Source: an uncultured Verrucomicrobiota bacterium
Lineage (GTDB): Bacteria > Verrucomicrobiota > Verrucomicrobiia > Limisphaerales > SIBE01
Reading direction: 5' to 3'
NCBI GenBank assembly: GCA_964578605.1
Contig: CAZODO010000014.1
Location: forward strand, 6,102 to 70,101
Length of the DNA: 64,000 nt
Of the stretch, positions 15,564 through 61,150 are shown piece by piece (within the stretch, counting starts at the first letter, position 1; each line of letters begins with the position of its first letter). The position numbers and the translations under genes are program-made. The notes beneath the pieces are model-generated. The model was not told the DNA's origin, ran no database searches, and saw only the letters and a list, made by a program, of their open reading frames with translations.

Positions 15564-15651
15564 AAACACAATCGATACACAATCGATACACAATAACGAT
15601 TGTGTTTCCATAGTGTTAGCAATGCGTATCTGATGCGTTTAAATCGAATGG
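15564..15651. repeat. Phased 11-bp tandem array A (about 7-8 units, forward then inverted)
   Basis: In strict 11-bp register: aaacacaatcg / atacacaatcg / atacacaataa / cgattgtgttt / ccatagtgtta / gcaatgcgtat / ctgatgcgttt. Dyad at acacaat-aacg-attgtgt. Confidence 0.8.
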
Positions 15652-15836
15652 AGCGCCTGACCGCTGCGGAACAACCACGCCTAAACATTTGCGGGTTGAT
15701 TGATTCGGAACTCGGAGTTCTTTCGGCGCCTTAGGTCTTCGGTCTTCGGGCTTTCCCGCGCCTCTCTTCCCTCACGGGATCGCCGGCTGTTCACCGTGGT
15801 TGGAACCAACGGTGAGAGAAGACCTTTATGCAGAGG

Positions 15837-18419
15837 CTATTCCGTCCGCTGGTATCGGAACACAACGGAGCCCGGACGATCGGTTAAGGCGACCGGTATC
15901 CCTTTGCTTAGGAGATCGTTGCCGGAATGCACGCTTTGGTGCCCCGTGTCCTGGTGGGTGACTGTGTACCGGGCGTTCTTGTCCAAAGCTTGCAATGGGA
16001 TTCGGGCCGATTCGTACGGGCTATCCGGACGGCGCAGAACCACAATCATGCCGTCGCCCGATTCAGGACGGTTAAATTGCCAGGCCATCCAAACGTCGCG
16101 CGCCTGGGAATAGCCGGTGAGGGGATAATAATCGCCATAGTAGAACGGCCGGATGTCCAGGTATTTGTCCAGAATCTGCTTGGCCCAGGCGAATGGGAAA
16201 TCAGGCCGGATCCGTTCCGCGGAAAGATCCCCTGATACCCACCAGTTCAGACAAAGGCCGCTGCACATGCTGCTTCGGAACTCGTAATCGTCCAGCGCAC
16301 GGTCCTGGCTGGTGGCACTTAACGGGACCCAGGCAAGCAGGCCATAGGAATGGCATTGGTGGGCGATGGCGTCGCGCGGGCCGTCCGTCCGCCAGAAAGG
16401 CGTGGCGCGCCCGGTGGTTTCGAGATCGATCCGCCGTCCGCCGCTGGCGCAGTTATCAAGGATGAGATCCGGATGGCGTTCGAGCAAGCCGTCCCAGAAG
16501 GCGTAAAGGCCCTCAATATACCTGATCTCGGCAACGCCCTGGCGGTCGGGGGAATCGGCTGCGCGCCAGAACGGGAGCGGATCGATATTGAAATCCTGGC
16601 GGTAACAGCCCAGGCCGAATTCGCGCACTTTGTCCGAGATGAAATCGGTGAGGAACTGCCGTGCGGCCTGGTTGCCCAGGTTGAACAGCAGGCTGCTGCC
16701 GCCGGTGTCCATCATCCATTCGGGGTGTTCTTTGTGCCAGGCGGAATCCCGGTAAACCCGTTCGGGCTCGAACCAGAGCATCAGCTCGCGCCCGGTCTTG
16801 CGCAGCGCATCGCTCAGGGGTTTGAAGCCCTGGGGGTAAAGGTCCTTTTTGACATTCCAATTGCCGACGCTGACCGGCCAGCCCGCGAACCCGAACCATT
16901 CGGCATCGATCCAGTAGTATTCCACCGGCAATTCGTGCTGGATGATCTTCTGGATGTTGTCCAGGTGCACTTCCGCCCGGGTCCCGCCCCAATTGCCGCA
17001 GGTGATTGGCGCAACGAGCGGTTCGCCCCCGCGCTTCGGACGGTGATGAGCCAGGATGAAGCGGCGCAGGAGGTTCTGGCCTTGCCAGCGGTCGCCTTCG
17101 TAGAAGAGAAGGAGCATGCGCGGCGTCCGAATGCTTTCGCCGGGATGCAGGACCAGGTGGGTGCGATCCAAGCCGGCCTTAAGGGCCACTTGGCCGGCGG
17201 CGTCGCAAGCGAACTCCGCTGCCCATTCGCCGCTCCATCCAATCGCGGCGATCAGGCCGGTGCCGGCGCCTTCGACATTGAAAAAGGGCAGCACCTGGCT
17301 TGAAGACCGACCGCCCCTGGGTTGGAGTCGGAGCTTCGACCCGGACTTGAGGGGGGTGGTTTGCGGCGCGAAATCGTCGAATGACGCCACGCCGCCTTTG
17401 GCCCAATGCAGGGTGGCATTCCCGGACGTGGCGAGCGGCAGCACGGTGTCGATGGCCTGGATCTGCTCCAAAATCGGCGTGTTGGTTGCGCTGGTGTTGC
17501 GAAGATGCACGACCCATTCGACCGCGGGGAAGTCCTTGAAACGAATGGCTTCGGTCCGGATCTCCAGGCCGGTGGCGGGGTCCTGGGTGACCAGCTCGCG
17601 GCGGACGCGCTGGGCATCGATTTGCTGTTCGCGGAGCGTCCGTGTCCAGGGTCGCACTAGGTCGGGACTGTCTTTTCCGCCATATCGGAAGGACCACACT
17701 TCCGGGTTGGAATCCTTGCCGCCCGCGAGCGGAAGGTCCTGGAGGCGCACCTGGGTGCCGTCTTCGAGAGCCACGATCGCCTCGGCCCAGAGCGCTTGGT
17801 CCCAGCCACGTCCATCGCCGCCGTCCCGCACGCGGATCTCGAACTCGCGCGCCCCGTTGAGCGGCAAATCGATGGTTCTGGCGCCATCCTTGCGCCGAAG
17901 GACGGGTGACGCGAATACCTCTTCGCCCGCAACGAGCACGTGGAAGGTCACCGAGCCTTGCCCGAGTTGTTCGCCGCGTTGGGTGTCGTCGTTGTTCTCC
18001 AAGCCGATGTCGGCGGTGAAACGGGCCGCGGGTTTGGGAAGTTGAACCTTCAGATGTTTCGTGGAGTTGAAGGCGATCCCGTGACGATAGGTTTTGTCAC
18101 CCAACTGGAACGGCGTGCTCCGCCACGAACGTCCCCGTGAGAGGCCGTCCGAAACGTCGGTGTAGATGACTTCAAGGGCCGGGCTGCGTCCGGCCGGCGG
18201 TTGCGGACTGAACACATTCTCCCACCAGGCAAGGGAAGCGCTGAATTCAGCCGGTTGAGGCGCGACAGCCCGCGCTTCTGGCATCGACGTCACGACGAGA
18301 AACAAAGCGGACAACATCCAGCCAAAGGCCCGGGCCCAGGAAACACACCCACCATTCGAAAGGCTCGTGACTAGACCTCTGACCTCCGATCTCCGGCCTC
18401 TGGCCTCTTGGATTTGCAT
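15837..18419 (-). CDS. Secreted GH36-like alpha-galactosidase with an N-terminal NPCBM-like carbohydrate-binding domain
   Basis: NPCBM-like block (GDKTYRHGIAFNS...GSVTFHVLVAGEEVF...GWDQALWAEA). Catalytic region CYRQDFNIDP and LILDNCASGGRRIDLE. Start set to ATG 18419, because the track start 18452 is TTG. Confidence 0.65.
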   Translation of the reverse strand: MQIQEARGRRSEVRGLVTSLSNGGCVSWARAFGWMLSALFLVVTSMPEARAVAPQPAEFSASLAWWENVFSPQPPAGRSPALEVIYTDVSDGLSRGRSWRSTPFQLGDKTYRHGIAFNSTKHLKVQLPKPAARFTADIGLENNDDTQRGEQLGQGSVTFHVLVAGEEVFASPVLRRKDGARTIDLPLNGAREFEIRVRDGGDGRGWDQALWAEAIVALEDGTQVRLQDLPLAGGKDSNPEVWSFRYGGKDSPDLVRPWTRTLREQQIDAQRVRRELVTQDPATGLEIRTEAIRFKDFPAVEWVVHLRNTSATNTPILEQIQAIDTVLPLATSGNATLHWAKGGVASFDDFAPQTTPLKSGSKLRLQPRGGRSSSQVLPFFNVEGAGTGLIAAIGWSGEWAAEFACDAAGQVALKAGLDRTHLVLHPGESIRTPRMLLLFYEGDRWQGQNLLRRFILAHHRPKRGGEPLVAPITCGNWGGTRAEVHLDNIQKIIQHELPVEYYWIDAEWFGFAGWPVSVGNWNVKKDLYPQGFKPLSDALRKTGRELMLWFEPERVYRDSAWHKEHPEWMMDTGGSSLLFNLGNQAARQFLTDFISDKVREFGLGCYRQDFNIDPLPFWRAADSPDRQGVAEIRYIEGLYAFWDGLLERHPDLILDNCASGGRRIDLETTGRATPFWRTDGPRDAIAHQCHSYGLLAWVPLSATSQDRALDDYEFRSSMCSGLCLNWWVSGDLSAERIRPDFPFAWAKQILDKYLDIRPFYYGDYYPLTGYSQARDVWMAWQFNRPESGDGMIVVLRRPDSPYESARIPLQALDKNARYTVTHQDTGHQSVHSGNDLLSKGIPVALTDRPGSVVFRYQRTE

Positions 18420-18491
18420 GGTGCCGCCAGGATAGGCCGCTTCCACCGGCAAGCAAGGGCGTAACAGATGGATCGGCGGGCTCAGCCGGCG

Positions 18492-19370
18492 CTAAGGCTT
18501 CCACAACCGATAGAACCGCGCCACGCCGGAGACATTATTCGTCTGCCGGACGGTGTCGCCGCTCAACGCGATCGGGGCCTCAACTACGGTCCAGGAGGAT
18601 TCAGAGCCGGGGAGTGTCGCGCTGGATTGAACGATGACGCTGCGCCAGTTCGCCGGCCAAGCCAGGACAAATCGCCTGGCTGCCAAACGTTCCAGTTCGA
18701 GGGCGGGCGGCGTTGGGTCCTCAGGCTCACCCGCGAGCGCAGAGCAGATCACAGCGGCCATGGCCGACATGCCTTTGGAGTTGGGGTGCACCGTGTCGGG
18801 GAACCATTCCGGATGGCCATCGAGACGGGTATGCAAATCCACAAGATCGAGGTTCAACCGATCCGCAAGGTCGCGCACGGCTGGGGCAATATTGGTGGCC
18901 ACGATCCCAGGGTTGATGCTGTAAGCGCCGCTGCGATACACGGGACACGGGGTGCACGCCATGATGCGGGGCGCATTGGTCAGGATGGCGTAGCTGCGCA
19001 CCATCTCCTCGTAATCGCTGACGAAGTTGGTCCCGGACCGCCAGTTTTGCGGTTTGGAATCGTTCGTGCCCAATTGGATAATGACCACGTCGGGCGCCCA
19101 TTCGTGGCTCTGGGTGAACGCCGGCTCTTTCCAGTAGGGATAATCCCCTTTCTCCAAGAGCGTCCGGCCGCTAATCCCGAAATTGCGCACGCTGTAATTC
19201 GTGCCTAAGAGCCGCTGGAGCTTCGCCGGGTAACTCTCGACCGACGGATTGGACAATCCCGAGCCGAACGTGATGCTGTCTCCGATGCAGGCGATCCTCA
19301 GTTGGGCTCCATGAAGGGCGATCTGCGAGATCAGGAACACGAGAGCAGCCGACAGGGCAGGGTAGACCAT
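18492..19370 (-). CDS. Secreted SGNH/GDSL hydrolase (carbohydrate esterase-like)
   Basis: SGNH blocks IACIGDSITFGSG, IIQLGTNDSK and DTVHPNSKG. N-terminal signal-like segment. Lies 40 bp upstream of the GH36 gene. Confidence 0.75.
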   Translation of the reverse strand: MVYPALSAALVFLISQIALHGAQLRIACIGDSITFGSGLSNPSVESYPAKLQRLLGTNYSVRNFGISGRTLLEKGDYPYWKEPAFTQSHEWAPDVVIIQLGTNDSKPQNWRSGTNFVSDYEEMVRSYAILTNAPRIMACTPCPVYRSGAYSINPGIVATNIAPAVRDLADRLNLDLVDLHTRLDGHPEWFPDTVHPNSKGMSAMAAVICSALAGEPEDPTPPALELERLAARRFVLAWPANWRSVIVQSSATLPGSESSWTVVEAPIALSGDTVRQTNNVSGVARFYRLWKP

Positions 19371-19550
19371 AGGAAGGAGAGTATTCCCGGCCAGTTTGCT
19401 GCGTCAAGGCCACCCAAAACGGTCGCGCCCCGCCCAAAAATGGGGAGAATTGCGGCAAAAGGGTTTGCATGGGGTGCTGAGCGTGATACGCTCACCAGCG
19501 ATTGATGCACACACCGAGAACGCCAGCGGGCCGAGCCGAACTGGAGTTGC

Positions 19551-20069
19551 ATGAACGCTATTCGGCAACGCCTGACAGTACTGCTGGCTGAGGACGACGA
19601 AAACGATTCGCTTCTGATCCGGCGGGCGTTCGACCGCTTGCGCAGCCTCGTTCGTCTGATTGTCATTCCTGATGGCGATACCGCTACTGCGTATCTCCGG
19701 GGTGAGGGGAAATTCTCAGATCGCGAGCGCTGGCCTTTGCCGGACGTTGTCCTGCTGGACCAATGGCTGCCGGGGACCACGGGGCTTGACGTGCTGGCCT
19801 GGATGCGAACCGAAGCGGGCTTGGTCTCCCTTCCCGTCGCCTTGATCAGCGGAGGGATGTCGCCCGTGCATGCGCAGGAAGCGAGCCGATTGCGGGCGGC
19901 CTCATGCGCCAAAGGGGCGGACGCGACCGAGATGATGGAGGCGATCGATTGGGCGATGGAATCCGCCCAAGGCCTGGCATGTGAAGCCTGGTTTGCTTCC
20001 AGGAATGCGTATGCCCCTGCCTGCGCGCAGAGCCCCTATCAGCGAGAGGCTATTCGCGTCTGGACGTGA
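19551..20069 (+). CDS. Stand-alone response-regulator receiver protein
   Basis: LTVLLAEDDENDSLLI...DVVLLDQWLPGTTGLDVLAWMR (CheY-like acidic pocket and phospho-acceptor Asp). No recognisable output domain. Confidence 0.8.
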   Translation: MNAIRQRLTVLLAEDDENDSLLIRRAFDRLRSLVRLIVIPDGDTATAYLRGEGKFSDRERWPLPDVVLLDQWLPGTTGLDVLAWMRTEAGLVSLPVALISGGMSPVHAQEASRLRAASCAKGADATEMMEAIDWAMESAQGLACEAWFASRNAYAPACAQSPYQREAIRVWT

Positions 20070-20095
20070 CGCGTGTATCCGGGCGATTCGTCGGC

Positions 20096-24708: not shown

Positions 24709-24711
24709 AAG

Positions 24712-27345: not shown

Positions 27346-27465
27346 CAGCTTTGGCGATTCCTGCCACACTCTGATCGGATGAGACCCGCGAGCCAGCCCC
27401 CAAGAGAACCTGATCCGGCCCGGTCCTCGAGTCCTGCTTGCGGATGTGCCGCGAAGGCTTGTGGC

Positions 27466-30400
27466 ATGGGCCGGCGGGAGTTTTTGAAGGTCTCTGGTTG
27501 GGCGGCGCTGACGGCGGGTGTGGCGCCCTGGCGGGCCATGGCCGGGCCCTTCGCGGCGGCGGACTTCGAGAACCTGGTTCCGGCGGACAAGCGCCTCAGC
27601 CCTGAATGGGTCAAGTCGTTAACGGAGCGCGGGGAGCCCGAGGTCTGGCGCGGTTCCGAGTTGGCGCATATTGGGATGCCGGCCGGCGGGATTGGCTGCG
27701 GGCAGCTCTATATCAGCGGAGACGGCCGTCTTTGGCATTGGGATATCTTTCGCCCCACCTATTCCACCGATTATTCCGAGGTCACGACCGGTCCGCATTA
27801 CGCCGAACCGCTCTCCCAGGACTCTCCCATCGAGCAAGGGTTCGCGCTTCGCATCAATGCGGGCGGGCAGCGCGAGGTCTGGGAACTGGATTCGCGGGCG
27901 TTCCGTGACGTGGCATTTCGCGGCGAGTACCCGATGGCGAAGGCGCGTTTTGAAGACGCGGCGTGTCCGGTCCGGGTGGATCTGGTGGCCTTTTCGCCCT
28001 TCATCCCGCTGAATCCCGACGCTTCCTCTTTGCCGGCGACCGTCCTGCAGTACGAGATCAGGAACACGAGCAAGTCCAAGATCGATGTGGAGATCGCGGG
28101 CTGGTTGCAGAACGCGGTATGCCTGTCGGACGACCTGCCGTCACTTGGCATCCGGCGCAACCGGGTTTCGCGCCGGGACCGAGTCCTGATGTTGGAATGT
28201 TCGGCAGAACCGCCGCCGGCGCGGAACCGGGCCGAGCGCCGGGCGGACATCCTTTTTGACGGATTCGAACGCGGAACGTACCAGGGCTGGACGGCGACCG
28301 GCACCGCCTTTGGTTCCGGGCCGGTGGAGCGAAGCGGGATGCCTTCCTACCAGCAGGATCCCGGAGCCCAAGGCCGCGGCCTGGTCAACAGCCACAATGC
28401 CCGCCAGGGCGAGGATATCCCCAAAGCCGATGCGCACACGGGGACGCTGACGAGCCGGTCGTTCGTGATTGAGCGCGATTTCATTTCGTTCCTCATTGGC
28501 GGCGGGCAGCACCCCGGCAAGACGTGCCTGAATCTGCTGGTGGACGGCTTGGTGGTCGCCAGTGCCACCGGTCACAACGATCACCGCATGCGCCAGGAAT
28601 GCTTTGACGTGAGTGCCTGGCCGGGGAAAACCGCCCAGCTCCAGATCATCGACCAGGTCGAGGGGGCCTGGGGGAATATCGGCGTGGACGAGATCGTGTT
28701 CACGGACGAAATCCCGAGCAACAAGCAATTGGACCAGTTGCCCGGGTATGGCACCATGAGCCTGGCCGTGTTGGACTCCAAGCGATCCGATCCTGGGGTC
28801 GCCGTGGTGGCCAGGCCGGTCACGGCCACCTCCGTCTTCAGTGCGCTCCGGGAGAGAAAGCCGGTGCCCTCAGTCACGACGCGCTTTGGGCAACTGTTGG
28901 CCGGCGCCGTGGGGCGCAAACTCAGTCTCCGGGCGGGCGACAGTGCCAAGGTCACCTTTGTCCTCGGCTGGCATTTCCCGGCTTACCTGAACCCTTCCGG
29001 TGAAATGGCAGCCATCCGGGACATTGGCCAACTGCGCCGCCGCTACGCCCGGAGGTTCGATTCGGCCAGCGATACGGTTTCCTACGTGGCGCGGCATCTC
29101 GACTCGCTCGCGGGGGAGACGGCGCTTTGGAACGAAACCTGGTACCGTTCCACACTCCCGTTCTGGTTCCTGGACCGCACCTTCCTCACGCTTGACACCC
29201 TCGCGACGACCACCTGCCACTGGTTTGATAACGACCGCTTTTACGCCTGGGAAGGGGTCGACTGCTGCCCGGGCACGTGCCAGCACGTCTGGCAGTACGC
29301 CCAAGGCGTGGCCCGCGTCTTCCCCCAGATCGAACGCGACGTGCGCGAGCGCGTCGATTTCGGCCTTGCCTGGCATGATAACGGCGCCATGGATTACCGC
29401 GGCGAAAGCGGCCGCAACGTGGCCCATGACGGCTTTGCCGGAACTCTTTTGCGTGTCTACCGCGAACATCAGACCTCTTCGGACAGCGCGTTCCTGCGGC
29501 GACTCTGGCCGCGTGTCCGCAAATCGCTGGAGTACCTGATGCGCGAAGACGCCGACGGCGACGGCCTGCTCGAGGGCGAGCAGTTCAACACCCTTGATGC
29601 GTCATGGTTCGGTCCCATGGCCTGGGTCAGTTCGCTGTACCTTGCCGCGCTGGCGGCCGGCCGTGAGATGGCCCTGGAGATGGAGGACGAAGCGTTCGCA
29701 AGGCGCTGCCAGCGCTTGATGATCGTCGGCCGCCGCAACCTGGTCGATCGACTCTTCAACGGCGAGTACTTCATTCACAAACCGGACCCGGCCCGGCCGG
29801 AGGCCACGAACACCAACGACGGCTGCCATATCGACCAGGTCTTCGGCCAGAGTTACGCCTGGCAACTGGGGCTCGGCCGCGTGGTTCCCGAAGCCGAGTG
29901 CGCTTCGGCATTGCGGTCGATCTGGCGGTACAATTTCACCCCGGACGTGGGCCCTTACCGGCAGAACTTCAAGGCGATCACAGCCGGGCGCTGGTATGCC
30001 TTGCCGGGCGAAGGCGGCGTGATCATGTGCACCTGGCCGAAGGGCGGCGCGGAAAGAGCCTCCGGCAAGGGCAACCCCACGTTTGTGGGGTACTTCAACG
30101 AATGCATGACCGGGTTCGAGTACCAGGTCGCGGCCCACATGCTCTGGGAAGGCATGGTCACCGAAGGGATGGCCATCGTTCGGACCATCCACGACCGGTA
30201 TCACGCCTCCAAGCGTAATCCCTACAACGAAGTCGAGTGCTCCGACCATTACTCCCGCGCCATGATGAGCTACGGCGTCTTCCTCGCAGCCTGCGGCTAT
30301 GAGTACCATGGTCCCAAGGGCCACCTCGGCTTCGCCCCGCGGATCACTCCGGAGCATTTCCGCGCCGCCTTCACTGCCGCCGAAGGGTGGGGGACCTTCT

Positions 30401-30642
30401 CCCAAGACCGCGAGGCGCGATCCCAAAGCCACACCCTGGACCTCAAGTGGGGCAAGCTCCGGGTTCGCACCCTCGCTTTCACGCTCGCGGATGGGGTCAG
30501 ACCGGCCCGCGCCAGGGTGCGCGCAGCGGGGAAGTGGATTGATGCCACGGTGCGGCCCGTGGGGAGCCGCGCCGAGATCACGCTCGGCTCGGAAGTCACA
30601 TTGAGGGCGGGAGAATCGATGGAGGTGACGGTCTTTCCGTAA
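27466..30642 (+). CDS. Tat-exported GH116-like beta-glucosidase/glucosylceramidase with an inserted beta-sandwich module
   Basis: Tat motif [9 protein letters not shown]. GH116 N-terminal domain signature [27 protein letters not shown]. C-terminal (alpha/alpha)6-type region ([29 protein letters not shown]). Start set to ATG 27466. Confidence 0.7.
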   Translation: [1058 protein letters not shown]

Positions 30643-30967: not shown

Positions 30968-31504
30968 TCAGCCGCCGAACAGGGCCCGGGCGACCGCCAG
31001 GAGGAACTGAGCCACAAAGAAAAAGGCCGTCCCTGCCGCAAACACCAGCGCAAGAAACGCCGCGGCAAGCCAGAAAACGATCTGGCGCGCAGGGCGTTCG
31101 GGTGTCGCCGGATTGTAATGCTGATCCAGAAGGCGCAAGTTCCTGATGTTCGCCTTCCAGACCGCGTCAAAGATATCGCCCAAGACGGGAAAAGTCCCCA
31201 CGAGCGCTTCCACGGCGAGATTGCCCATCATTTTGGCGAGTACCTTCTTTTGCAGGCCAAGGCGAGCCGATTCGTACACGAGGTAAAATGAGATGACCAT
31301 CCCGACTACGTCGCCCAACCCAGGCAGAACTCCGAGAAGCGGGTCCAAACCGATCCGGTACCCGCTCGGCAGCACGATCGACTGGTCCATCAGGACGCTC
31401 CATGACCGGATGCGCCGGTAACGGGGATTTTCGGGATAGACGATCCGCTGGGCGCGTTTCCCATCCGCATGTGCGCTGGATTGTGTCGTGAGTTGTTCGT
31501 TCAT
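30968..31504 (-). CDS. DUF4112-family membrane protein
   Basis: LPGLGDVVGMVISFYLVYESARLG...VGTFPVLGDIFDAVWKANIRNL. Start set to ATG 31504 (MNEQL...). The longer ORF reads through repeat array B. Confidence 0.65.
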   Translation of the reverse strand: MNEQLTTQSSAHADGKRAQRIVYPENPRYRRIRSWSVLMDQSIVLPSGYRIGLDPLLGVLPGLGDVVGMVISFYLVYESARLGLQKKVLAKMMGNLAVEALVGTFPVLGDIFDAVWKANIRNLRLLDQHYNPATPERPARQIVFWLAAAFLALVFAAGTAFFFVAQFLLAVARALFGG

Positions 31505-31583
31505 CCTGGCTCTTTGCTTTGAGCAGGGTAACACCAAACCGCTGGTCAAGCCACGAGGCTGCCAGTTGACGCCGCATAGACTA

Positions 31584-31704
31584 TAAACGCACGCTAAACG
31601 CACGCTAAACGCACGATAAACGCACGATAAACGCACGATAAACGCACGATAAACGCATGTATACATGAGTTTACCATGTGTTTAACATGAGTATGACATG
31701 TGTA
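31584..31704. repeat. Phased 11-bp tandem array B (11 units, 121 bp)
   Basis: taaacgcacgc x2, taaacgcacga x4, taaacgcatgt, atacatgagtt, taccatgtgtt, taacatgagta, tgacatgtgta, all in 11-bp register. Lies 80 bp upstream of the DUF4112 ATG. Confidence 0.95.
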
Positions 31705-31909
31705 ATTATTGGATGGCTGGCGGATGCGGTTCAGCAAAACCTCGGATCGGCCTTAAGCCCTTTCCCAACCGGCCGCCCTCGCGCGCAACTATCCAGGCGG
31801 CAAAACCGGGCATGGGATGGGTTCGCCAACGGATCGCCAATTATCCCCGGCCGTTGAACACGGTGAAAACCTACGGGGCGGATGGCGGCTGGTTCTCTGC
31901 GGTCGCGGC

Positions 31910-38865: not shown

Positions 38866-38940
38866 GGACGAGAGCGTAGACCGGCATGGCCCTGATGACA
38901 AACATCTGTCACGCGATGCCCCGCACACCAGGCACTGCCG

Positions 38941-39028
38941 ATATTCAAGTATTGTTCCACTATGGTCTTACTATTATAAGTTAGTAAAACCATGCTAGAA
39001 TATTAGTTAAATGTTGGTTAAAACCCGT
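38941..39028. repeat. Degenerate AT-rich tract with 11-bp phasing (array E)
   Basis: ttgttccacta / tggtcttacta 11 bp apart. ttagtaaaa (38981), ttagttaaa (39003) and ttggttaaa (39014) are separated by 22 and 11 bp. Confidence 0.45.
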
Positions 39029-41338: not shown

Positions 41339-43498
41339 CTAGCGCCAAATGGATTTCAGCGGGTAAACCAGCACCGAAGCGCGGCGCAGTTCGCCCCAGC
41401 GCGCGAATAAGGCCAGCGGGGGCTTTGCCGGGTCGAGCACGGCGCCCATCGGCATGTAAAGGCTGCCGCCATTCCCGAAGATCTCGATGGAAGTGCGGTC
41501 CACGAGCAATCGCAGGCGAATCTTGCCTTCCACCGGAACCAACGTGGCCTTCGTTCCCAGGCATGACAGTTCCTGGCCGGGCACATTGTAGGTGATGGGG
41601 AGGCCGCGCAGGGCCAGGCCGAACTCGGGAGCCGAACCCGGTTCGAACTCCGCGGTGATATCGAGAAGGTCCGAGGCGACCTCCGGCAAGGGGCGATCCC
41701 CTTCGAACGAAATGGCACTTTGGCGGAACTCGGGGCCGCGCAGGGATTCGATCTCTCTGGCGGGGTTGACGAAGAGCCTTAGGCCTTGGCCAGTTTCGCG
41801 CAGCGTGAGTTCCACCGGGAACGTCATCATCTGGTTGAAGGGCATTCCAGGCAGGTTGATCTGTCCCCAGGCGATCAGGATGCGGCGCCCGTCTTCGGCC
41901 GGGATGCCGTTGTAGGTCTGCGAAGCGTAAAAGCAATTGCCGTTATGGAGCGTGTGCGGGCCGGATTCCGGTGTGAAGGTCTTCCCGTCAAAGCGGCCAA
42001 CCAGGTAGCGGCCGTTGCCCCCGTAGAACACCCAGCGCGTTTCGCCTGGCTTTTCGGCCACGGGCATTTCGAAGAACTCGGGGCACTCGCTGGTCCCGGG
42101 CAGCGTCACGTTGCTCATCCGCTCCCAGCGCCTCAGATCGGGCGAGGAGAAGAGGGCGAAATCGCTTTTGTCCAGGTAAAGGGCCATGATCCATTTCCGC
42201 TCCGGCGCGTGCCAAAAAACTTTGGGATCGCGGTTTTCCGCAACGATATGACCGAGGACCGGGTTGCCATCGAACTTGGTCCAGGTGCGGCCGCGGTCCG
42301 TGCTGAACGCCAGGCACTGGGTGAAGGGTTGCCCTTTGGACTGGTGGCTGGTGCCCCCTGCCGCGGTATAGATGCAGACCAGGGCAGTTTCGCCAGCCTT
42401 GGCGAACCCGGCCGTGTTTGCGGCATCCACGACGGCCGAACCGGAGAACATGGTCCCGAGCTTGTCCGGGTAGAGCGCTTCACCCAACTCCTCCCAGTGC
42501 ACGAGATCGCGGCTGACGGCATGGCCCCAGTGCATGTTTCCCCAGTTCCAGCCATAGGGATTGTGCTGGTAGAAAAGGTGATATTCGCCGTCGTGATAAG
42601 CGAGGCCGTTCGGGTCGTTATTCCAGCCGCGTTTGGACGAGAAATGGAATTGAGGTCGCAACGGCTCCTGGTAGAGGGTTTCCGCGCCCTTGATGGCGTC
42701 GGACGGCTCGATCAGCGCCAGGGCTTTCGAATCCTCGCGGAGCTTGTCCACGATCAGAATGGCGGACTTGCCATGGAAAGGCGCGAGGTCGAGAAAGACC
42801 CAGAAGTCCGGTTCCGCATCCGCAAGTTCGATCTCGAACTCGCGCACGGGCTGGTTCTCGATCGTGAGCGTCACGCGCTTCTTGGGCGCGCCATTCTTGA
42901 CCGGCAGATTCAGCCAGCGTTTTTCGATCTGGATCTCGCGCTTGGCGTCCGCCAGGAAGGCGGGCAGCGGCCGATCCGTCTGCAGGATGTGATCGATATT
43001 GATATGGCCCCACCCGCCAGTCGCGTCGTCGACGATTTGCAACTGGGCCGCCTGTCCGGCCAACGCAGTGACGTCCCACTCCTGCCAATCGAGGTGTTCC
43101 GATCCGCCCGGTTGCGCATTCGGGCCCGTGGCGGTCCGGACAATCTGCCCGCCGACGAGCAGATTCATGCACGTTTTGTCCGGGTGCTTGCCGCCGCCAA
43201 CGAGGAACCGGATGCGCGTGCGTTCGATCTTGAACTGCGGCGAGGTGAGTTTGCCTGTCGAACCGTCGCCGCCATGAAACGAATTCACCAAATGCTTGCC
43301 TTCAAAGCCATCGACAACCATTTGCCCTGGGAGCGTGCCTGCGGCCGGTCCGGGACCGAACGCCGCCCCTTCGGTCTTCCAACCGCCGTAATCTGTGCCT
43401 TCGAAATCCGCGATCAGAAGGTCTTGTGCCGGCCAGGCCCGGCCGGCGAAACACAGAGGAAAAAGAGAAAAAAGAGCGGCAATGGAGGCAGCACGCAT
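41339..43498 (-). CDS. Secreted GH32 fructan/sucrose hydrolase (levanase/inulinase-like) with an N-terminal beta-sandwich module
   Basis: WNNDPNGLAYHDGEYHLFYQHNP, RDPKVFWH and the ECPEFFE motif triad. Signal peptide MRAASIAALFSLFPLCFAG. Confidence 0.9.
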   Translation of the reverse strand: MRAASIAALFSLFPLCFAGRAWPAQDLLIADFEGTDYGGWKTEGAAFGPGPAAGTLPGQMVVDGFEGKHLVNSFHGGDGSTGKLTSPQFKIERTRIRFLVGGGKHPDKTCMNLLVGGQIVRTATGPNAQPGGSEHLDWQEWDVTALAGQAAQLQIVDDATGGWGHINIDHILQTDRPLPAFLADAKREIQIEKRWLNLPVKNGAPKKRVTLTIENQPVREFEIELADAEPDFWVFLDLAPFHGKSAILIVDKLREDSKALALIEPSDAIKGAETLYQEPLRPQFHFSSKRGWNNDPNGLAYHDGEYHLFYQHNPYGWNWGNMHWGHAVSRDLVHWEELGEALYPDKLGTMFSGSAVVDAANTAGFAKAGETALVCIYTAAGGTSHQSKGQPFTQCLAFSTDRGRTWTKFDGNPVLGHIVAENRDPKVFWHAPERKWIMALYLDKSDFALFSSPDLRRWERMSNVTLPGTSECPEFFEMPVAEKPGETRWVFYGGNGRYLVGRFDGKTFTPESGPHTLHNGNCFYASQTYNGIPAEDGRRILIAWGQINLPGMPFNQMMTFPVELTLRETGQGLRLFVNPAREIESLRGPEFRQSAISFEGDRPLPEVASDLLDITAEFEPGSAPEFGLALRGLPITYNVPGQELSCLGTKATLVPVEGKIRLRLLVDRTSIEIFGNGGSLYMPMGAVLDPAKPPLALFARWGELRRASVLVYPLKSIWR

Positions 43499-43681: not shown

Positions 43682-44314
<633 letters not shown>

Positions 44315-44836: not shown

Positions 44837-45817
44837 TCACCTCCCTGCCATCCGGCGCGCTTTTAGCTCCTTCCAGGTTGTCAGGATGATGCCTTTTTCC
44901 TCGATGGCGCGTTTCACCCTCGGATCGGTCAGGGCTTTAAGATCTTCGCCCCTGGCCGCACTCGAGCCCGTGACGAGGGGGAATTCATCCGTCGGCTTCG
45001 AAGCATGGAAGATAATCTCGGTTACGCCTGGCTTGAGTTCGTCGAACAAGGCGATTAAGCGTTCGACTTTGTCGCCGCGATGCCCGGTGAATTCGGTATA
45101 AAGATCGTCCAGGACTGGCAGGCCGGCGTTCCAGACCCGCTCCGCCCATGCCTCGAGCAGCGCGGCCAGTTGGCGTTCCTCGATCGAAAGGTGCGCGGCT
45201 TTGGGGCTCACGATCAGGATGGGTAGGTTCTTCTCCATTCCGAGCTTCGCGTAACGCTCGAAGAAGTCCGGGCGGGCGAACAAAGTCCCCATGTGCGAGT
45301 CGAGGTGGGTGATGGGGATGTTCAAACGCTCGGCGCGTTCAACTTGGGCGCGCATCTCACGCTCGATCTCGTCGGCGGAAGCCGACCGCGCGACTTGTTG
45401 GACGGACGGCCACAGGCAACCTTCGGCATCCACGAGGCCGGGCACTTGCGATTTGCCTGCCAGGGGTGCCCAGCGGTAGCGCTTCCACTCGGACGTCAGC
45501 GTCAGGTGCACCCCGGCGTCCAATTCCGAATGCGCCTGGAGATGATGCGCCATTTCGGGCACCCACGGACAGGGCATCATGAGGCTAAACGACGTCCCCA
45601 CGCCGTTCGCGGTCGCTTCAATGGCACCCAAATTGGACGAATGCGACATCCCGGCATCGTCAATGTGAAGGATGACCACCACGTCGGCCGGTTTCCATCC
45701 CAGTCGTTCGGCGTAGGTCTGGCTCATGACGTTTTGCGCTCCCAGGCTCGCCACCAGGAGCGCCAGGAGAAGTCCAGATTTGAGACACGCGCCGCGCCAA
45801 ATGGCTATCGATTGCAT
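44837..45817 (-). CDS. YdjC/ChbG-family carbohydrate deacetylase, secreted
   Basis: VVILHIDDAGMSHSSN and THLDSHMG. Start set to ATG 45817, which gives a signal peptide (MQSIAIWRGACLKSGLLLALLVASLGAQ). Confidence 0.7.
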   Translation of the reverse strand: MQSIAIWRGACLKSGLLLALLVASLGAQNVMSQTYAERLGWKPADVVVILHIDDAGMSHSSNLGAIEATANGVGTSFSLMMPCPWVPEMAHHLQAHSELDAGVHLTLTSEWKRYRWAPLAGKSQVPGLVDAEGCLWPSVQQVARSASADEIEREMRAQVERAERLNIPITHLDSHMGTLFARPDFFERYAKLGMEKNLPILIVSPKAAHLSIEERQLAALLEAWAERVWNAGLPVLDDLYTEFTGHRGDKVERLIALFDELKPGVTEIIFHASKPTDEFPLVTGSSAARGEDLKALTDPRVKRAIEEKGIILTTWKELKARRMAGR

Positions 45818-45908
45818 ATGGCCGATTAGACCAGGAAAGACCGGCGTCCGGAAGCAGATTCCCGTGAATCGACGCGCTCTCCCACTCTTCTGCTCCGCCG
45901 CTCCTCCC

Positions 45909-46029
45909 GGTCTTAACACGGTCTTGACACGGTCGTCACCCGGTGATCACCCGGTGATCACCCGATCACGAACGGGTGATCTACGGGTGAACTACGGGTG
46001 AACTACGGGTGAACTACGGGTGAACCCCG
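45909..46029. repeat. Phased 11-bp tandem array C (11 units, 121 bp)
   Basis: ggtcttaacac / ggtcttgacac / ggtcgtcaccc / ggtgatcaccc x2 / gatcacgaacg / ggtgatctacg / ggtgaactacg x3 / ggtgaaccccg. The unit ggtgatcacc is itself a 10-bp palindrome. Confidence 0.95.
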
Positions 46030-46130
46030 TGAGGACCTGGAAAGGAGATCGGCAGCGGCGGTGTGCCAATCGATAACCGGGTGGGGGTCGCGTATCGCCC
46101 GCGTATTGGGGAGGACCACTGCAAGAATCG

Positions 46131-57399: not shown

Positions 57400-58031
57400 G
57401 GTTTCACCCCCTTCGGCCAGTGTTGCCTGGCGCGTTTCAGCACCTGGTCATGCGGGGTCGGTTCCCATTCGTAATCGTCCGGCTCGACATAATCCTTCCG
57501 CATCGGATGATCCTCGAACCCTTCCCACATCAAAAGGCGGCGCAGGTCGGGGTGTCCGTCGAAAACGATGCCGAACAGGTCGAAGATCTCGCGTTCCTGC
57601 AAGTCGGCGCTCCGCCAGACGGGGGTCAATGAGGGCAGATGCATGTCGCTGTCCCGGTCGGCGGTGCGCATGCGGATGACCAGGGGGCCATGTTTTTTCG
57701 CCATGGAATAAAGGTGGTAAACAGCTTCCAGGCAGGCAGGTCTCCGGCGCTCAACCGTTTGTTCCACCTCTTTCTCCACGCCGTCGACCCGCACCCGGAG
57801 GCGGACCTTTTCCTGGTAAACCAACTCCGGCCAATCGAGCCCCGTCACGTTGGACGCGTAATCGAAGCACAAATCCGGAGCGTCATGAAGGAACCGGGCC
57901 ACGGCCAGCGCGTGCTCTCGGCTGAGCAGGAGCGAGCGCTGGCCCGAGGGGGCGTCATTCGGCACCAAATCAACGCGCGCGGCTGGAAGAGCGGCTTCGA
58001 TCTGCGCTTTGATCTCCTCGAGCGTGCCCAT
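57396..58031 (-). CDS. nuoC: NADH-quinone oxidoreductase subunit C
   Basis: ...[30 protein letters not shown]... Confidence 0.85.
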
Positions 58032-58669
58032 TACGCAACCTCCTCGCGCACGAGCACCGGCGGTTTCCAGATGCCATCGTGCCTGGGCGGGTCCAGGTCA
58101 TGGGCTCCGAACTGGGGCACAGGAAATTCGCTGGGCGCCTCTGCCACAAAATGCCGCGCGCGGCCGGGGCCGAAGAGTTTCTGTTCGTCGATGCGCTTCT
58201 GGAGGGTCATGAACGCGTGGATGAGCGCTTCCGGCCGTGGTGGGCACCCGGGAATATGGACATCCACCGGGATAAAGCGATCGATGCCTTTCAGAACGTT
58301 ATAGCCCTGTTTGAATGGGCCGCCCGAAATCGCGCAAGCGCCCATGGCGATGACGTATTTGGGCTCGGGCATCTGGTTGTAAAGGCGCACCACTTGCGGC
58401 GCCATCTTCTTCGTGACGGTCCCCGCCACAATCATCAGGTCCGCCTGGCGCGGCGAGGGCCGAAAGACCTCGGCGCCAAACCGGGCGAGATCAAATCGGG
58501 CCATGGAAGCTGCGATCATCTCGATAGCGCAGCAGGCGAGGCCAAAGGACAGGGGCCAAACGGAGTTCTTGCGTCCCCAGTTGAACAACTCTTCCAGGGT
58601 TGTCGTGACAATCCCGTGCTTGCTGAGTTCGCTGCGGAGTTCTTCGTCCATAACTACCTGGGCGGCCAT
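58031..58669 (-). CDS. nuoB: NADH-quinone oxidoreductase subunit B
   Basis: [16 protein letters not shown], ...[10 protein letters not shown]... and GCPPRPE. The start is uncertain (ATG 58669 or 58651; the track start is GTG 58717). Confidence 0.9.
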
Positions 58670-58697
58670 GGCCCGCGCACAGGCCAAGCGCGCGCCG

Positions 58698-59093
58698 TCA
58701 TTTCCACGTGAGAACACCCTTGTTCCATGCCCATATCAACCCCTCCACGAGCAGGAGGAGGAAGACCATCATCGCGATAAAGGCGCCAGCGGAAAGGCTG
58801 GTGAACGCCACCGCAAAGGGCAGGAGGAAGATCGTCTCCACATCAAAGATCAGGAAGATGATCCCATACAGATAATACTCCGGCCTGAACAATCCCCAGC
58901 CTTCCCCCTTCGATTCCAGGCCGCACTCGTAGATCGCATTCTTTTCGAGGCCGGGCTTCTTGGGTGAGAAAAACCGCGCCCAGAGCCAAGCCAAAACCAG
59001 GGGACCCACCGCAAAGAGCGCCGCCGCTACGGCGAAAAGCGCGAGGAAAAGGTAAGGGCTGTAAGTCGCTGGCATTGGAACAGGCCGGCTCAT
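58698..59093 (-). CDS. nuoA: NADH-quinone oxidoreductase subunit A
   Basis: ...[10 protein letters not shown]...[15 protein letters not shown]... Confidence 0.85.
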
Positions 59094-59132
59094 TCCCGGC
59101 TTTCAGGTGCGGACGGGCTTGCACCGGCGCGA

Positions 59133-59408
59133 TCAGTTTCGCTGCGGCTCGGGCCGTTGCAAGCCGACAGAATGGGCGATATCCTCAAACTCTTCGCGGC
59201 TTACCTCTTCCAGCGCTTTGCGTTTGGCCGCGAGCTTCTCGTTGATCTTGATGACCTTTTCGGTCATGACCTCATGCGTTTCCTGGGTCCCGCCAACCAA
59301 AGCGAAATTCGGGCCAGTCGTGATTCGTTTGTGCCCGTCCGAATCAAGACCCACCCCCAGGAGAATCGCTTTTCGACGTTTGTTCTTCTGGCCAGAAGAG
59401 TTCGGCAT
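59133..59408 (-). CDS. Small conserved-looking hypothetical protein immediately upstream of nuoA
   Basis: 91 aa. Basic N-terminus, then GVGLDSDGHKRITTGPNFALVGGTQETHEVMTEKVIKINEKL. Same strand as nuoA and 39 bp upstream of it. Confidence 0.45.
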   Translation of the reverse strand: MPNSSGQKNKRRKAILLGVGLDSDGHKRITTGPNFALVGGTQETHEVMTEKVIKINEKLAAKRKALEEVSREEFEDIAHSVGLQRPEPQRN

Positions 59409-59624
59409 GCCAGCAACCTAAGGAATGAGTTCCCCATGGTCAAGCTTGGCAGGGGGCGCGGCTTCCCGGAGACGTTGTCACGCACTTTATCCAGCACTTT
59501 GTCCTGAAACGAAGTGGAAGACGCGGTGCGGGACGAAGGGCGTGTGAACGACCGGTCTCAAAGGGCCAGCCCTGCCTTTCCTGGCTCGCCATAGGGCGTG
59601 AAGGTCCTCATATTTCTGGAGCCG

Positions 59625-60992
59625 ATGAAACAGTGCCCCCTCCTTCTTCTTGCGCTAATGCCTCTTGCCCTCTGGGCTGCCGAACCGTGCCAGGTCAACG
59701 TTGTCGATGAAGAGAACGGCTGGCCGGTGCCCCTGATCGAGCTCCGAACCACCCATCAAATGCGCTCCATCACCGACAATGCCGGCATCATCGCTCTCGA
59801 CGCTCCCGAGTTGATGAATCGCGAAACCTGGTTCGACATCGTCGGGCACGGATACGGGGTGCGCCCGGACGGGTTTGGCATGCGCGGCGTCCGGATCACG
59901 CCCACCCCCGGGGGAACGGTGACGGTGAAGGTCAAGCGCGAGATCATCGCGAAACGCCTGGGACGCCTTACCGGCGCCGGGTTGTTCGCGGAAAGCCAAA
60001 AGCTCGGGAAAGACCTGGATTGGCCGGAGTCCGGCGTGTTCGGCTGCGACAGCGTTCAGAACGCGGTGCATCGAGGCAAACTCTTCTGGGCCTGGGGCGA
60101 TACGACCATGCCGCAGTACCCGCTGGGCATCTTTCACATGACCAGCGCCACCACGGCCATCCAGCCTCTCACCTCGTTCGAGCCTCCTGTCCGGTTGAAG
60201 TTCGAATACTACCGCGATGCCAAAGGGGCGCCGCGCGGCGTGGCCGTCATGCCCGGAAGCGGCCCAACCTGGGTCAGTGCGTATGTAAGTTTGCCGGACA
60301 AGACAGGTTCCCCACGCCTGGTTGGCACTTACGTCAAGATCAAGCCGCCTATGGAGGCTTACGAGACCGGCCTCTGCGTCTGGAACGACGCCACCTCAAG
60401 CTTCGAACAGCACCGAGTCCTTTGGACCAAGAGCGACCAGGCACCCAAACAACCCCCGGCTCCAGACGGCCATCCCGCCTTCTGGAAGGATGCGGATGGC
60501 AAGGAATGGGTGCTCTTTGGCAACCCCTTGCCGAACCTCCGCTGCCCGCCCACGTTCGAAGCTTGGTCCGATCCGGCCAAGTGGGAAATCCTCCGCCCAC
60601 AGGAAACCCTCGCGTCGGCGGAAAATGGCGCGCCGGTCAAGCCGCATACCGGTTCGATCGCCTGGAACCCGTTCCGCAAGCGCTGGGTCACCGTCTTCAT
60701 GGAAGTGTTCGGGAAGCCGTCCCCTTTCGGCGAGCTTTGGTATGCCGAGTCCGCGGTTCCCACCGGTCTGTGGGGGAAGGCGGTCAAAGTTGTCACGCAC
60801 CAGAATTACACGTTTTACAACCCGCGTTTGCATCCTGAATTCACCGAAGCGAACTCGCCCATCCTGATCTTCGAAGCCACCTACACGGCGACCTTTGCGG
60901 ATCGGCCGCATCCCACACCCCGATACGATTACAACCAGGTGCTATACCGGTTGGATCTGAACGACCCGGCGCTGGCCGGGGCGCAGAACTAA
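59625..60992 (+). CDS. Secreted hypothetical protein (N-terminal beta-sandwich-like region plus a large C-terminal domain)
   Basis: Signal peptide MKQCPLLLLALMPLALWAA. No family assigned from sequence alone. Confidence 0.5.
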   Translation: MKQCPLLLLALMPLALWAAEPCQVNVVDEENGWPVPLIELRTTHQMRSITDNAGIIALDAPELMNRETWFDIVGHGYGVRPDGFGMRGVRITPTPGGTVTVKVKREIIAKRLGRLTGAGLFAESQKLGKDLDWPESGVFGCDSVQNAVHRGKLFWAWGDTTMPQYPLGIFHMTSATTAIQPLTSFEPPVRLKFEYYRDAKGAPRGVAVMPGSGPTWVSAYVSLPDKTGSPRLVGTYVKIKPPMEAYETGLCVWNDATSSFEQHRVLWTKSDQAPKQPPAPDGHPAFWKDADGKEWVLFGNPLPNLRCPPTFEAWSDPAKWEILRPQETLASAENGAPVKPHTGSIAWNPFRKRWVTVFMEVFGKPSPFGELWYAESAVPTGLWGKAVKVVTHQNYTFYNPRLHPEFTEANSPILIFEATYTATFADRPHPTPRYDYNQVLYRLDLNDPALAGAQN

Positions 60993-61029
60993 ACCCGGGA
61001 ACAGAACAAACGCGGGCCAGGATTCAGTC

Positions 61030-61150
61030 TAAACGCACGCTAAACGCACGCTAAACACATGCTAAATACACGATATACACATGATAAACGCATGAAAACA
61101 TGAGTTTGTCATGTGTGTAACATGTGTTTATCGTGCGTTTCTATCGAATA
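61030..61150. repeat. Phased 11-bp tandem array D (11 units, 121 bp), same family as array B
   Basis: taaacgcacgc x2 / taaacacatgc / taaatacacga / tatacacatga / taaacgcatga / aaacatgagtt / tgtcatgtgtg / taacatgtgtt / tatcgtgcgtt / tctatcgaata. The first 27 nt are identical to the start of array B. Confidence 0.9.

Follow-up and report, generated by a model that had tools for sequence, protein, structure and literature searches.

The stretch of DNA analyzed here (the window: 64,000 nucleotides of contig CAZODO010000014.1, assembly GCA_964578605.1, from an uncultured verrucomicrobial bacterium of the order Limisphaerales) is chromosomal, carrying der, nuo and similar genes, and holds four arrays of an 11-bp unit (A, B, C and D) beside genes coding for Der, a GH36 enzyme, a Na/H exchanger, a DUF4112 protein, a YdjC-family protein, a LysR protein and a methyltransferase. 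All four are real head-to-head arrays of 11-bp units, and all four are intergenic, falling in the ca. 8% of the window left between genes in our own rough gene map. The observation is stronger than this single window shows: the arrays belong to a family of fixed architecture present in several genomes, and the framing under which they were originally predicted, as promoter-proximal sets of 11 units of 11 bp, fails in the relatives.

Tandem Repeats Finder (TRF) called period-11 repeats at positions 15566-15594 (A), 31583-31657 and 31663-31700 (B), 45906-45968 and 45972-46025 (C), and 61029-61100 (D). When the window was scanned for self-matches at periods of 4 to 30 bp, long arrays appeared solely at lag 11 and its multiple 22. 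Using a threshold of at least 22 lag-11 matches in 33 bp, 254 segments were counted in the real sequence; 100 dinucleotide-preserving shuffles gave 0.08 on average and never more than 4. Units of the TAAACRCAYG type, with up to one mismatch, were seen 26 times where 6.7 were expected; the excess is confined to A, B and D, and the ca. eight single units of this type outside the arrays are at chance level. An Rfam scan of the window gave no matches.

The arrays share a common geometry, i.e., a 10-bp unit plus one base, with the innermost inverted units 4 bp apart and the units of one arm being the reverse complements of those of the other. A, B and D form one class (class 1), and C is a second (class 2). 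Element B has a forward arm on the side of the DUF4112 gene (31583..31659, plus strand) with seven (C/A)TAAACGCACG units, the innermost being ATAAACGCATG, a TATA spacer at the dyad (31660..31663) and an inverted arm (31664..31707, minus strand) with the four units CATGAGTTTAC, CATGTGTTTAA, CATGAGTATGA and CATGTGTAATT. Beyond the latter, possibly two further decayed units (GGATG, 11-bp spacing; by eye, unscored) reach to ca. 31729. The forward arm of D (61029..61094, plus strand) is composed of six units, CTAAACGCACG twice, CTAAACACATG, CTAAATACACG, ATATACACATG and ATAAACGCATG; after an AAAA spacer (61095..61098) comes the inverted arm (61099..61153, minus strand) with CATGAGTTTGT, CATGTGTGTAA, CATGTGTTTAT, CGTGCGTTTCT and the end motif ATCGAATACGA, and the unit variants of its two arms are complementary to each other. 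Element A (15551..15653) is a divergent member of class 1. Its mirrored ends, CTCCTTTCGAT (15551-15561) and ATCGAATGGAG (15643-15653), match at 10 of 11 positions and enclose three forward units (15562-15594, GTAAACACAAT and CGATACACAAT twice), an AACG spacer (15595-15598) and four inverted units (15599-15642, ATTGTGTTTCC, ATAGTGTTAGC, AATGCGTATCT and GATGCGTTTAA). In the class-2 element C, the left arm (45910..45964, plus strand) has five units, GTCTTAACACG, GTCTTGACACG, GTCGTCACCCG and GTGATCACCCG twice, whose sequence grades from the outermost to the innermost. Its centre (45965..45972, ATCACGAA) is flanked by the inverted 7-bp cores TCACCCG and CGGGTGA, which are 8 bp apart, the same centre-to-centre distance as in A, B and D, and the right arm (45972..46037, minus strand) runs through ACGGGTGATCT, ACGGGTGAACT three times, ACGGGTGAACC and a decayed CCGTGAGGACC. 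Forward plus inverted units hence number 3+4 in A, 7+4 in B, 6+4 in D and 5+5 or 6 in C. Adjacent units are frequently identical, and mirror symmetry peaks at the centre of the elements and declines outwards.

Much of the original prediction stands after this analysis. The 11-bp periodicity is borne out by TRF, the lag scan and the shuffles, the related unit cores and the shared architecture are real, and both the head-to-head layout and the frequent identity of neighbouring units were recovered in A-D. The strict 11-bp register proposed for whole arrays applies to each arm separately, the 4-bp spacer between the arms breaking it; with no single register across the array, a count of 11 units depends on where the ends are drawn. 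The claim that B, C and D have 11 units each was not confirmed, given the 7+4 and 6+4 units of B and D and the variation in the family described below. The prediction overlooked that each array is a discrete element of a dispersed set, in which one arm is constant and the other varies.

In its gene context within the window, each array lies 3' of the end of a same-strand gene, four of four being in co-directional gaps, and A-D end 80-98 bp 5' of the vapB-like, DUF4112, YdjC and methyltransferase starts, as supported by homologue lengths (the start codons used match database proteins of 388, 326 and 341 amino acids). By Pfam, A is upstream of a VapB-like gene (PF09957; 15236..15466, minus strand; 96 bp from the first forward unit), followed by der. 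This VapB-family antitoxin gene has no adjacent toxin gene and, in mechanical open reading frame (ORF) calls, overlaps the start of der (GTPase EngA) by 35 bp. The Pfam-assigned DUF4112 gene (30968..31504, minus strand) is ca. 80 bp from B, and the YdjC-family gene (44837..45817, minus strand), whose start agrees with the 326-amino-acid database protein, is 92 bp from C. On the other strand, a class I methyltransferase gene (61237..62262, plus strand; Pfam) starts 95 bp after the last inverted unit of D, and its 341-amino-acid start agrees with the relative and with most homologues. A database protein identical to this methyltransferase is 369 amino acids long; if the 28 extra residues are all N-terminal, its start would be ca. 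84 bp upstream, at the end of array D (61153-61237). Since the protein of the relative and most homologues have ca. 341 residues, the 369-residue start has probably been called too far upstream.

A fifth candidate, E, had been proposed as a weaker family member, and its gene label had been swapped with that of C: it is C that precedes the YdjC gene and E that precedes, by Pfam, a CE15 glucuronyl esterase gene. We found E (38938..39017) to be an AT-rich imperfect inverted repeat with 36-nucleotide arms that are 72% complementary. The region 38941-39028 fails all periodicity thresholds of the lag scan, and no E-like sequence was found 5' of the CE15 orthologue in the relative (locus L079). E is not demonstrable as a family member.

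Outside the window, the sample comprises 14 class-1 elements from at least four genomes (this window, GCA_054814625.1, the Limisphaerales metagenome-assembled genome [MAG] JBGAIN01 and metagenome contigs) and two class-2 elements, C and a copy at L079:16253-16359. The class-1 elements were cut into units from the spacer outwards, with the register fixed at 11 bp. Their forward arms contain 3-7 units of (C/A)TAAACGCACG, in which 9-10 of 10 positions match TAAACGCACG, and they all point towards a spacer that is 4 bp long and can have any sequence. On the other side there are four recognizable inverted units (5-9 of 10 positions matching), and the fifth unit outwards is background (1-4 of 10). 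Elements of the family measure ca. 90-140 bp, with a dyad at the 4-bp spacer and 7-13 units in two converging blocks; the recognizable units number 7-11 and extend over 80-125 bp per element.

A scan of one genome per species revealed tandem class-1 units on seven contigs of JBGAIN01 (relaxed two-unit pattern), as well as the class-1 architecture on a short contig binned as Nitrosomonadales (L033), which may be mis-binned since its array is of the type found in the window lineage. This contig also carries an insertion sequence (IS; 770-2668) with a DDE_Tnp_1 transposase and terminal inverted repeats GAYCCGAATGGCGCTTAG, ca. 95 bp from the class-1 array and just after the 3' end of ftsZ. With a strict pattern, 241 million metagenome records gave four matches, two of which have the full architecture, so that the family is narrow. 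It is lineage-restricted, within the Verrucomicrobiia (the named MAG is a Limisphaerales bacterium). BLAST between class-1 loci showed similarity that stops at the array ends and nothing beyond, and a search with element B against plasmid and phage collections gave no match, to which the low-complexity filter may have contributed. In JBGAIN01, elements are located in divergent gaps with Pfam-supported neighbours (DUF1501/RRM, esterase/unknown and ExbB/unknown), in one co-directional gap, and between the convergent genes for ADH and P-II (L027); the gene calls at the MAG loci are partly our own crude ones, Pfam-checked where possible. In divergent gaps, the elements are 140-400 bp away from the nearest starts.

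Turnover could be followed between relatives. The closest one compared, GCA_054814625.1 (a 9.9-Mb contig with ca. 86% nucleotide identity), is syntenic with the window at 51.5-64 kb and has D at the same place (L047), where it has 4+4 units, the forward arm being exactly 22 bp, i.e., two units, shorter. By our own count on the alignment, ca. 15% of positions differ in the forward arm, ca. 35% in the inverted arm and ca. 50% in the upstream flank. The gain or loss of whole units, as predicted, is shown directly by this 22-bp indel. A relative with 66% protein identity (L077) keeps the same three-gene synteny with a 54-bp gap and no D array, and no period-11 array was found anywhere in its 21 kb. 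Upstream (5') of an 86%-identical YdjC orthologue, on another contig (L084), no array was found either. The class-2 copy of GCA_054814625.1 is 88% identical to C over 107 bp and has the same outer-to-inner gradient of units; its locus is an unrelated one, where OPT and GSDH genes converge with their 3' ends on either side of it, and its flanks are unrelated to those of C. An empty-site comparison for C yielded no readable insertion signature, as the homology between the window and L084 ends ca. 35 bp 5' of the YdjC start and not at the element boundary. The elements are discrete and dispersed, vary in length by whole units, are gained and lost between close relatives and occupy co-directional, divergent and convergent gaps.

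These data bear on the explanation closest to the original prediction, that each array is a gene-specific, promoter-proximal operator of the OmpR/PhoB type, or a copy-number-tunable promoter module, for the gene 75-100 bp downstream. Each unit has a GC-rich part of 6-7 bp and then an AT-rich part of 4 bp, and pho boxes have a layout of GC-rich and AT-rich parts resembling it. The 11-bp spacing would also fit, sites of the ArcA/PhoB family having this spacing and the possibility of extra repeats (PMC3798270). In addition, four of four arrays in the window stop at a similar distance before a start codon, L020 has a similar layout, and indels keep the helical phase. However, orthologous genes have not kept the arrays: L077 lacks D, no array precedes the YdjC orthologue in L084, and E is missing in L079. 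The class-2 copy and the L027 element are between convergent genes, elements in divergent gaps are 140-400 bp from the nearest starts, the putative target genes are functionally unrelated, and the number of sites is far above the two to five documented (PMC3798270). Scans for sigma-70 promoters and terminators gave nothing convincing at a fixed distance from the arrays. The tunable promoter module is weakened by all this, and we regard the gene-specific explanation as decidedly unlikely. The promised spacing of 75-100 bp holds for A-D in the window and not outside it. The arrays are discrete and dispersed, and their gain or loss is quick. Proximity to a promoter does not characterize the family and, given its variation in arm length and gap type, the statements "exactly 11 x 11" and "75-100 bp upstream" apply to this window alone.

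The two arms of the class-1 elements have very different levels of conservation. Forward units reach 18.6 bits (n = 62) and are 89% identical between elements, whereas the inverted arms are 48.5% identical between elements and have 7.2 bits in total. What the inverted arms keep is concentrated in A3, C6, C8, A9 and G11 (0.8-1.8 bits), with the other positions near zero, giving the consensus nnAnnCnCAnG. Leaving out the anchor unit and the window lineage, i.e., with MAG and metagenome elements only, the value is still 5.9 bits, C8 and A9 having 1.3-1.6, and units 5-8 beyond the inverted arm have 1.3 bits in total. The register was set by the spacer and not optimized, so that the alignment does not inflate these figures. 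Neutral decay would erase all positions equally; therefore, position-specific retention over exactly four turns points to a protein contact once per turn. The diverged inverted arms, as their sequences indicate, are under position-specific selection once per helical turn. Among the hypotheses of the original prediction, the cooperative binding platform is the one that gains support here, with five positions per 11-bp unit kept for exactly four units.

A sequence-specific DNA-binding protein for which each unit is one site, on the same face of the helix once per turn, would account for this pattern. Its recognition core would be nnAnnCnCAnG, with CA as the strongest part. High-affinity forward units would nucleate head-to-tail cooperative binding running towards the dyad, and cooperative binding from the opposite side would occupy the four weak inverted units, the outcome being a bounded nucleoprotein complex of ca. 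80-120 bp. Slippage in the perfect arm would alter the number of strong sites while keeping the helical phase, and if neighbouring genes are affected at all, this is probably a by-product of the element's position.

Two kinds of known sites resemble this arrangement, the nearest documented precedent being small winged-helix proteins that bind, cooperatively and in one direction, to boxes at intervals of one turn. The first are operators of the OmpR/PhoB family (ArcA, PhoB and OmpR), with direct repeats at 11 bp centre to centre, ca. 7-8 bits per site, extra repeats that extend the footprint, and repeat number and strength that vary between sites (PMC3798270). For ArcA, the direct repeat has 7.6 bits, to which the information content of the inverted arms is close, with the same 11-bp centre-to-centre spacing and two to five repeats per site (PMC3798270). 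They differ in that the known operators have those few repeats in one orientation, at the promoters of a coherent and conserved regulon, whereas here 7-13 units form two converging blocks, the neighbours are unrelated, the arrays are not conserved with the genes and some are in promoter-less gaps. Further multi-repeat operators of the OmpR/PhoB family are the repeat units of Streptomyces PhoP. The second are the sites of Cox, Apl and lambda Xis-type proteins, many short asymmetric boxes 10-11 bp apart in either orientation over an extended region of at least 70 bp, with cooperative, filament-like binding in the known Cox/Apl systems. P2 Cox has at least six cox-boxes, TTAAA(G/C)NC(A/C), 10-11 bp apart and in either orientation, running two ways at attP; its footprints are at least 70 bp, and the DNA has been proposed to wrap around a Cox filament (PMC3936717). 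The sites of 186 Apl are direct repeats at a distance of one turn. Of the nine cox-box positions, the window unit CTAAACGCA matches 8 and the L047 unit TTAAACGCA all 9, for a short consensus that was one of many motifs compared; the class-2 unit does not match it. We take the cox-box match in these sequences as a lead only, which could be due to chance. Cox and Apl sites are found in the attachment or early-promoter region of one prophage, beside the integrase and cox genes, whereas the elements described here are dispersed among ordinary chromosomal genes, and no integrase or Cox-like gene was found near the arrays, including the domains of small ORFs. Nor has a layout with a perfect arm of variable length opposite a weak arm of four fixed units been described for these directionality factors.

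From the sequences and these analogies, we tentatively suggest, with a confidence a little short of even, that class 1 and class 2 are a dispersed, slippage-prone protein-binding platform that may act in the manner of Cox/Apl or ArcA/PhoB sites and is not a gene-specific promoter design. Several points weigh against this suggestion. No candidate binding protein was found, the genes beside the arrays being unrelated and none Cox/Xis-like or a response regulator. The near-complete conservation of all 10-11 forward positions exceeds what a protein site typically needs, and recent amplification, conversion between copies or recent spread could also explain it. The cox-box is a short degenerate consensus, one of ca. 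15-20 motifs compared, with an estimated chance match of a few percent to ten percent. Runs of 7-13 contiguous sites are longer than documented for response regulators, and some elements are located where no promoter is expected, so that a regulatory pay-off is unproven. The arm complementarity of D, which follows the unit variants, points to some role or mechanism with intrastrand pairing. Lastly, the sample is small (14 class-1 and 2 class-2 elements) and comes from genome fragments.

Mobility without function is the alternative raised by the dispersal itself. [quoted passage not shown] Their boundaries are discrete, inter-locus similarity is confined to the element, the 88%-identical class-2 copy is at a non-orthologous locus, presence or absence is lineage-specific, and every type of intergenic gap is occupied. 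There is also a terminal motif, TTCGAT...ATCGAA: of the 28 ends, 4 have TTCGAT directly next to the outermost unit (background: 4e-4 per position), and most ends in the window lineage show variants of it. The ends of A match at 10 of 11 positions; many elements are without the motif. Mirror symmetry that is highest centrally and decays outwards, with the unit variants of D complementary between the arms, would fit the same explanation. Against it, no target-site duplication, autonomous partner or transposase was found beside any copy, and inspection of A, C and L079 showed no flanking duplication. The IS near the L033 array has separate, unrelated terminal repeats of its own at ca. 95 bp from the array, and a link between the two was dropped. 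Copy number looks low, with seven JBGAIN01 contigs under the relaxed two-unit pattern and 4 strict matches in 241 million metagenome records, and the outermost units, which a transposase would most need, are the most decayed. Position-specific conservation in the old inverted arms, together with forward units that are identical across genomes, is unexpected for neutral DNA; it would have to be credited to the mobilizing protein, at which point the MITE-like explanation merges with the protein-binding platform. As a separate explanation, we consider it unlikely. Drosophila foldback transposons, with inverted arms of short tandem repeats and variable arm length, are eukaryotic, kilobases long and have a known mobilization context. 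The elements resemble them in the tandem-repeat inverted arms of variable length and differ in that no transposition signature was found.

Closer to the prokaryotic world, repetitive extragenic palindromes (REPs), bacterial interspersed mosaic elements (BIMEs) and REPINs are also short, non-coding, exclusively intergenic, dispersed and lineage-specific, have an inverted arrangement and are gained or lost between relatives. Some REPs and BIMEs are bound by host proteins; gyrase, for instance, binds BIME-2 (PMC6379681). Yet the REP unit is a palindrome of 20-40 bp, with a hairpin read by a REP-associated tyrosine transposase (RAYT) and hundreds of copies, while the unit here is an asymmetric tandem 11-mer of apparently low copy number. 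On both sides of the only Y1_Tnp gene seen (L079, 11480-11854), the repeat is a different, GC-rich palindrome and not an 11-bp array, which also counts against a selfish origin, and in the sequences compared no RAYT/REP link was found, this Y1 transposase having its own unrelated palindromes. The region itself (L079, 11380-12030), a 124-amino-acid Y1 transposase (PF01797) gene with inverted GC-rich palindromes on both sides (GTCAGCCCAGGGCAGCGCCCTGGGAACTCG and its inverse), resembles a RAYT accompanied by REP sequences of its own and has no relation to the 11-bp arrays.

A third possibility is an architectural or topological site that is read by its shape, such as a strong gyrase site of the BIME-2 or Mu strong gyrase site kind, the site of another DNA-wrapping protein, or intrinsically curved DNA, the last being one of the original hypotheses. 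The Escherichia coli gyrase motif spans 130 bp, symmetric about a 4-bp staggered cut, with two 47-bp arms and a 10.75-bp periodicity in GC content, and the dispersed intergenic BIME-2 repeats are transcription-independent strong gyrase sites (PMC6379681). The likeness of architecture is very close: elements of ca. 100-130 bp, a dyad with a 4-bp centre, 11-bp periodic arms and, as in the published 133-bp gyrase consensus, A-runs in one arm and T-runs in the other. Nevertheless, a strong/weak scan with the E. coli consensus (not the full matrix) did not single out the arrays, which rank only 15th to 182nd in the window with their best scores off-centre. At the dyads, all four have z = -1.1 to -1.5, out of phase with that consensus. 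In curvature predicted with our own implementation of a wedge model, B ranks within the top 1.3% of the window and D within the top 4%, the forward arm of B being the second most curved stretch there, but the values for C (28th percentile) and A (50th) are ordinary. B alone stands out in AT/GC power at period 11. Curvature is not a shared feature, therefore, and the inverted arms keep specific bases (C, CA and G), not a strong/weak pattern. A site read by shape is, in our judgment, highly improbable. The most curved predicted stretch of the window (19351-19480, end-to-end ratio of 0.74 against a mean of 0.97) is located in a divergent gap (19370-19551) and has no 11-bp repeat.

The inverted arms might also act by intrastrand pairing, either as a long RNA hairpin (terminator, processing site or stabilizer between co-directional genes) or as a DNA cruciform. 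D folds to -48.9 kcal/mol (z = -8.7), each of three unit variants pairing with its matching variant, and A, B and C have folding z values of -2.4 to -4.7. All four window arrays are also 3' of the end of a gene, and in the orthologue of D the innermost pair carries matching AACC/GGTT changes on the two arms. But in most members only 5-8 of 10 positions of the inverted arm agree with the forward unit, which makes for poor pairing, and the surplus forward units are left with nothing to pair with. The arrays are not followed by a U-tract, the terminator-like matches being artefacts inside the repeat, and Rfam gave no match. The strand of the forward arm relative to the genes differs between elements (B versus D, L020 and L081), which argues against a strand-specific RNA. 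We hold a function through pairing to be very unlikely. The matched variants of D and the AACC/GGTT pair of its orthologue may reflect hairpin-templated correction.

Other site arrays are similar in one respect or another. In plasmid R1, parC, the site of ParR, has two sets of five 11-bp repeats, and omega binds arrays of heptads. These centromeres and operators, together with TP228 parH, are contiguous short repeats bound cooperatively by a small protein into one complex, and the omega heptads use both converging and direct orientations, like the elements here. They are single-copy sites beside a plasmid partition or regulator operon, whereas the window is chromosomal, and no par genes were found near its arrays. 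The E. coli oriC has oppositely oriented arrays of low-affinity DnaA boxes, 9-mers plus 2 bp and thus at 11-bp spacing, that are filled cooperatively from stronger sites. Again there are two facing 11-bp-spaced arrays filled from stronger sites, but oriC occurs once per chromosome, at the origin, and here there are four elements in 64 kb; moreover, the best units miss the DnaA box TTWTNCACA at one or two positions. Motifs that we compared and set aside were the DnaA box, dif/XerCD, parS, the NrdR box, the CarH 11-bp repeats, MraZ boxes, CRP-like sites and the EcoKI target. Our full-text searches turned up no account of this array architecture, and the one for the unit returned almost only papers on nucleosomes; TAAACGCACG is presumably part of the Widom 601 nucleosome-positioning sequence, which we take to be a coincidence.

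The class-1 10-mer is present elsewhere: Lachnospiraceae, Treponema, gut phages and others have two to three direct repeats of it, in some cases together with an inverted copy. With 596 gigabases searched for a single 21-mer pattern, chance encounters with unrelated families of 11-bp repeats are to be expected, so these matches in other phyla were not used as evidence, and the idea of a binding protein shared across phyla was dropped. They are described here for their own sake. In Lachnospiraceae (L009, L011, L014, L015, L024, L028, L036, L038 and L045) and in L029, there are two to three direct ATAAACGCACG units and one or two inverted copies. The array comes directly after the stop of a conserved gene with SLFN_AlbA_2, HATPase_c_4 and winged-helix domains (upstream of that gene in L029). 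The genes that follow vary and are defence-like (e.g., GmrSD), the next start being 50-125 bp further on; this may be an unrelated operator or terminator family that shares the 10-mer. In Treponema/Spirochaetaceae (L007, L019, L035 and L039), TAAACGCACGATAAACGCACG is beside a tyrosine integrase gene, where arm-type integrase sites or excisionase sites are expected. Some copies are bracketed by CATGGCAT...ATGCCATG, and a tRNA-like sequence (by eye) adjoins in L007 and L039. Viral loci with units were noted in ca. 25 IMG/VR contigs (L050-L076; GC ca. 57%) and in L049, L053 and L057. One contig family has GGAACGCACGA TAAACACACGA TAAACACACG ca. 45 bp before a gene start, and the viral contigs with ca. 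38% GC have three direct units and one inverted unit right before the ribosome binding site of an ORF that we judged to be a portal gene from its N-terminus, Pfam giving no family. L057 carries a sequence identical to the Lachnospiraceae locus L023.

A few other repeats and small genes were noted along the way. Within the window, two 60-bp stretches (28488-28547 and 43149-43208) are 83% identical in inverted orientation, inside two long genes (27379-30642, plus strand, and 41339-43498, minus strand). At 43682-44287, a DUF2442-domain ORF in an otherwise gene-poor stretch of 800 bp may be part of a small toxin-antitoxin-like pair. In L084, a 75-bp tandem repeat (15920-16114; 2.7 copies, 79% matches) is located among small ORFs without family assignment.

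The protein-binding platform can be extended into a bolder picture, which is possible but doubtful: a chromosomal class of dispersed "converging filament" sites that has not been described before. Under this extension, a dedicated protein with a Cox/Xis-type or winged-helix mode of binding would polymerize from the slippage-variable strong arm to the fixed four-site weak arm, building nucleoprotein knots of set size at many intergenic positions. These knots could be tunable insulators, roadblocks or architectural anchors of the chromosome. As with REPs, their spread or recruitment would be the host's doing, and class 1 and class 2 would be two site-protein pairs with the same geometry.

To our knowledge, almost no cis-elements or nucleoid proteins have been described in Verrucomicrobia. 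The bases under selection can be read directly from a comparison of the two arms, which differ in age, and a perfect array of 55-77 bp is an unusually clean bait for finding the binding partner. If the elements are only selfish repeats, they still matter for annotation, as illustrated by the 369-amino-acid methyltransferase model that appears to start ca. 84 bp too far upstream, and they are a warning against reading promoter logic into repeats from one window. Should a protein indeed bind the arrays, they would represent a natural binding platform in which strength depends on unit number, which phase-preserving 11-bp slippage changes quickly. Copied to new intergenic sites, such a platform would allow regulatory or architectural sites to be gained and tuned on short evolutionary time scales.

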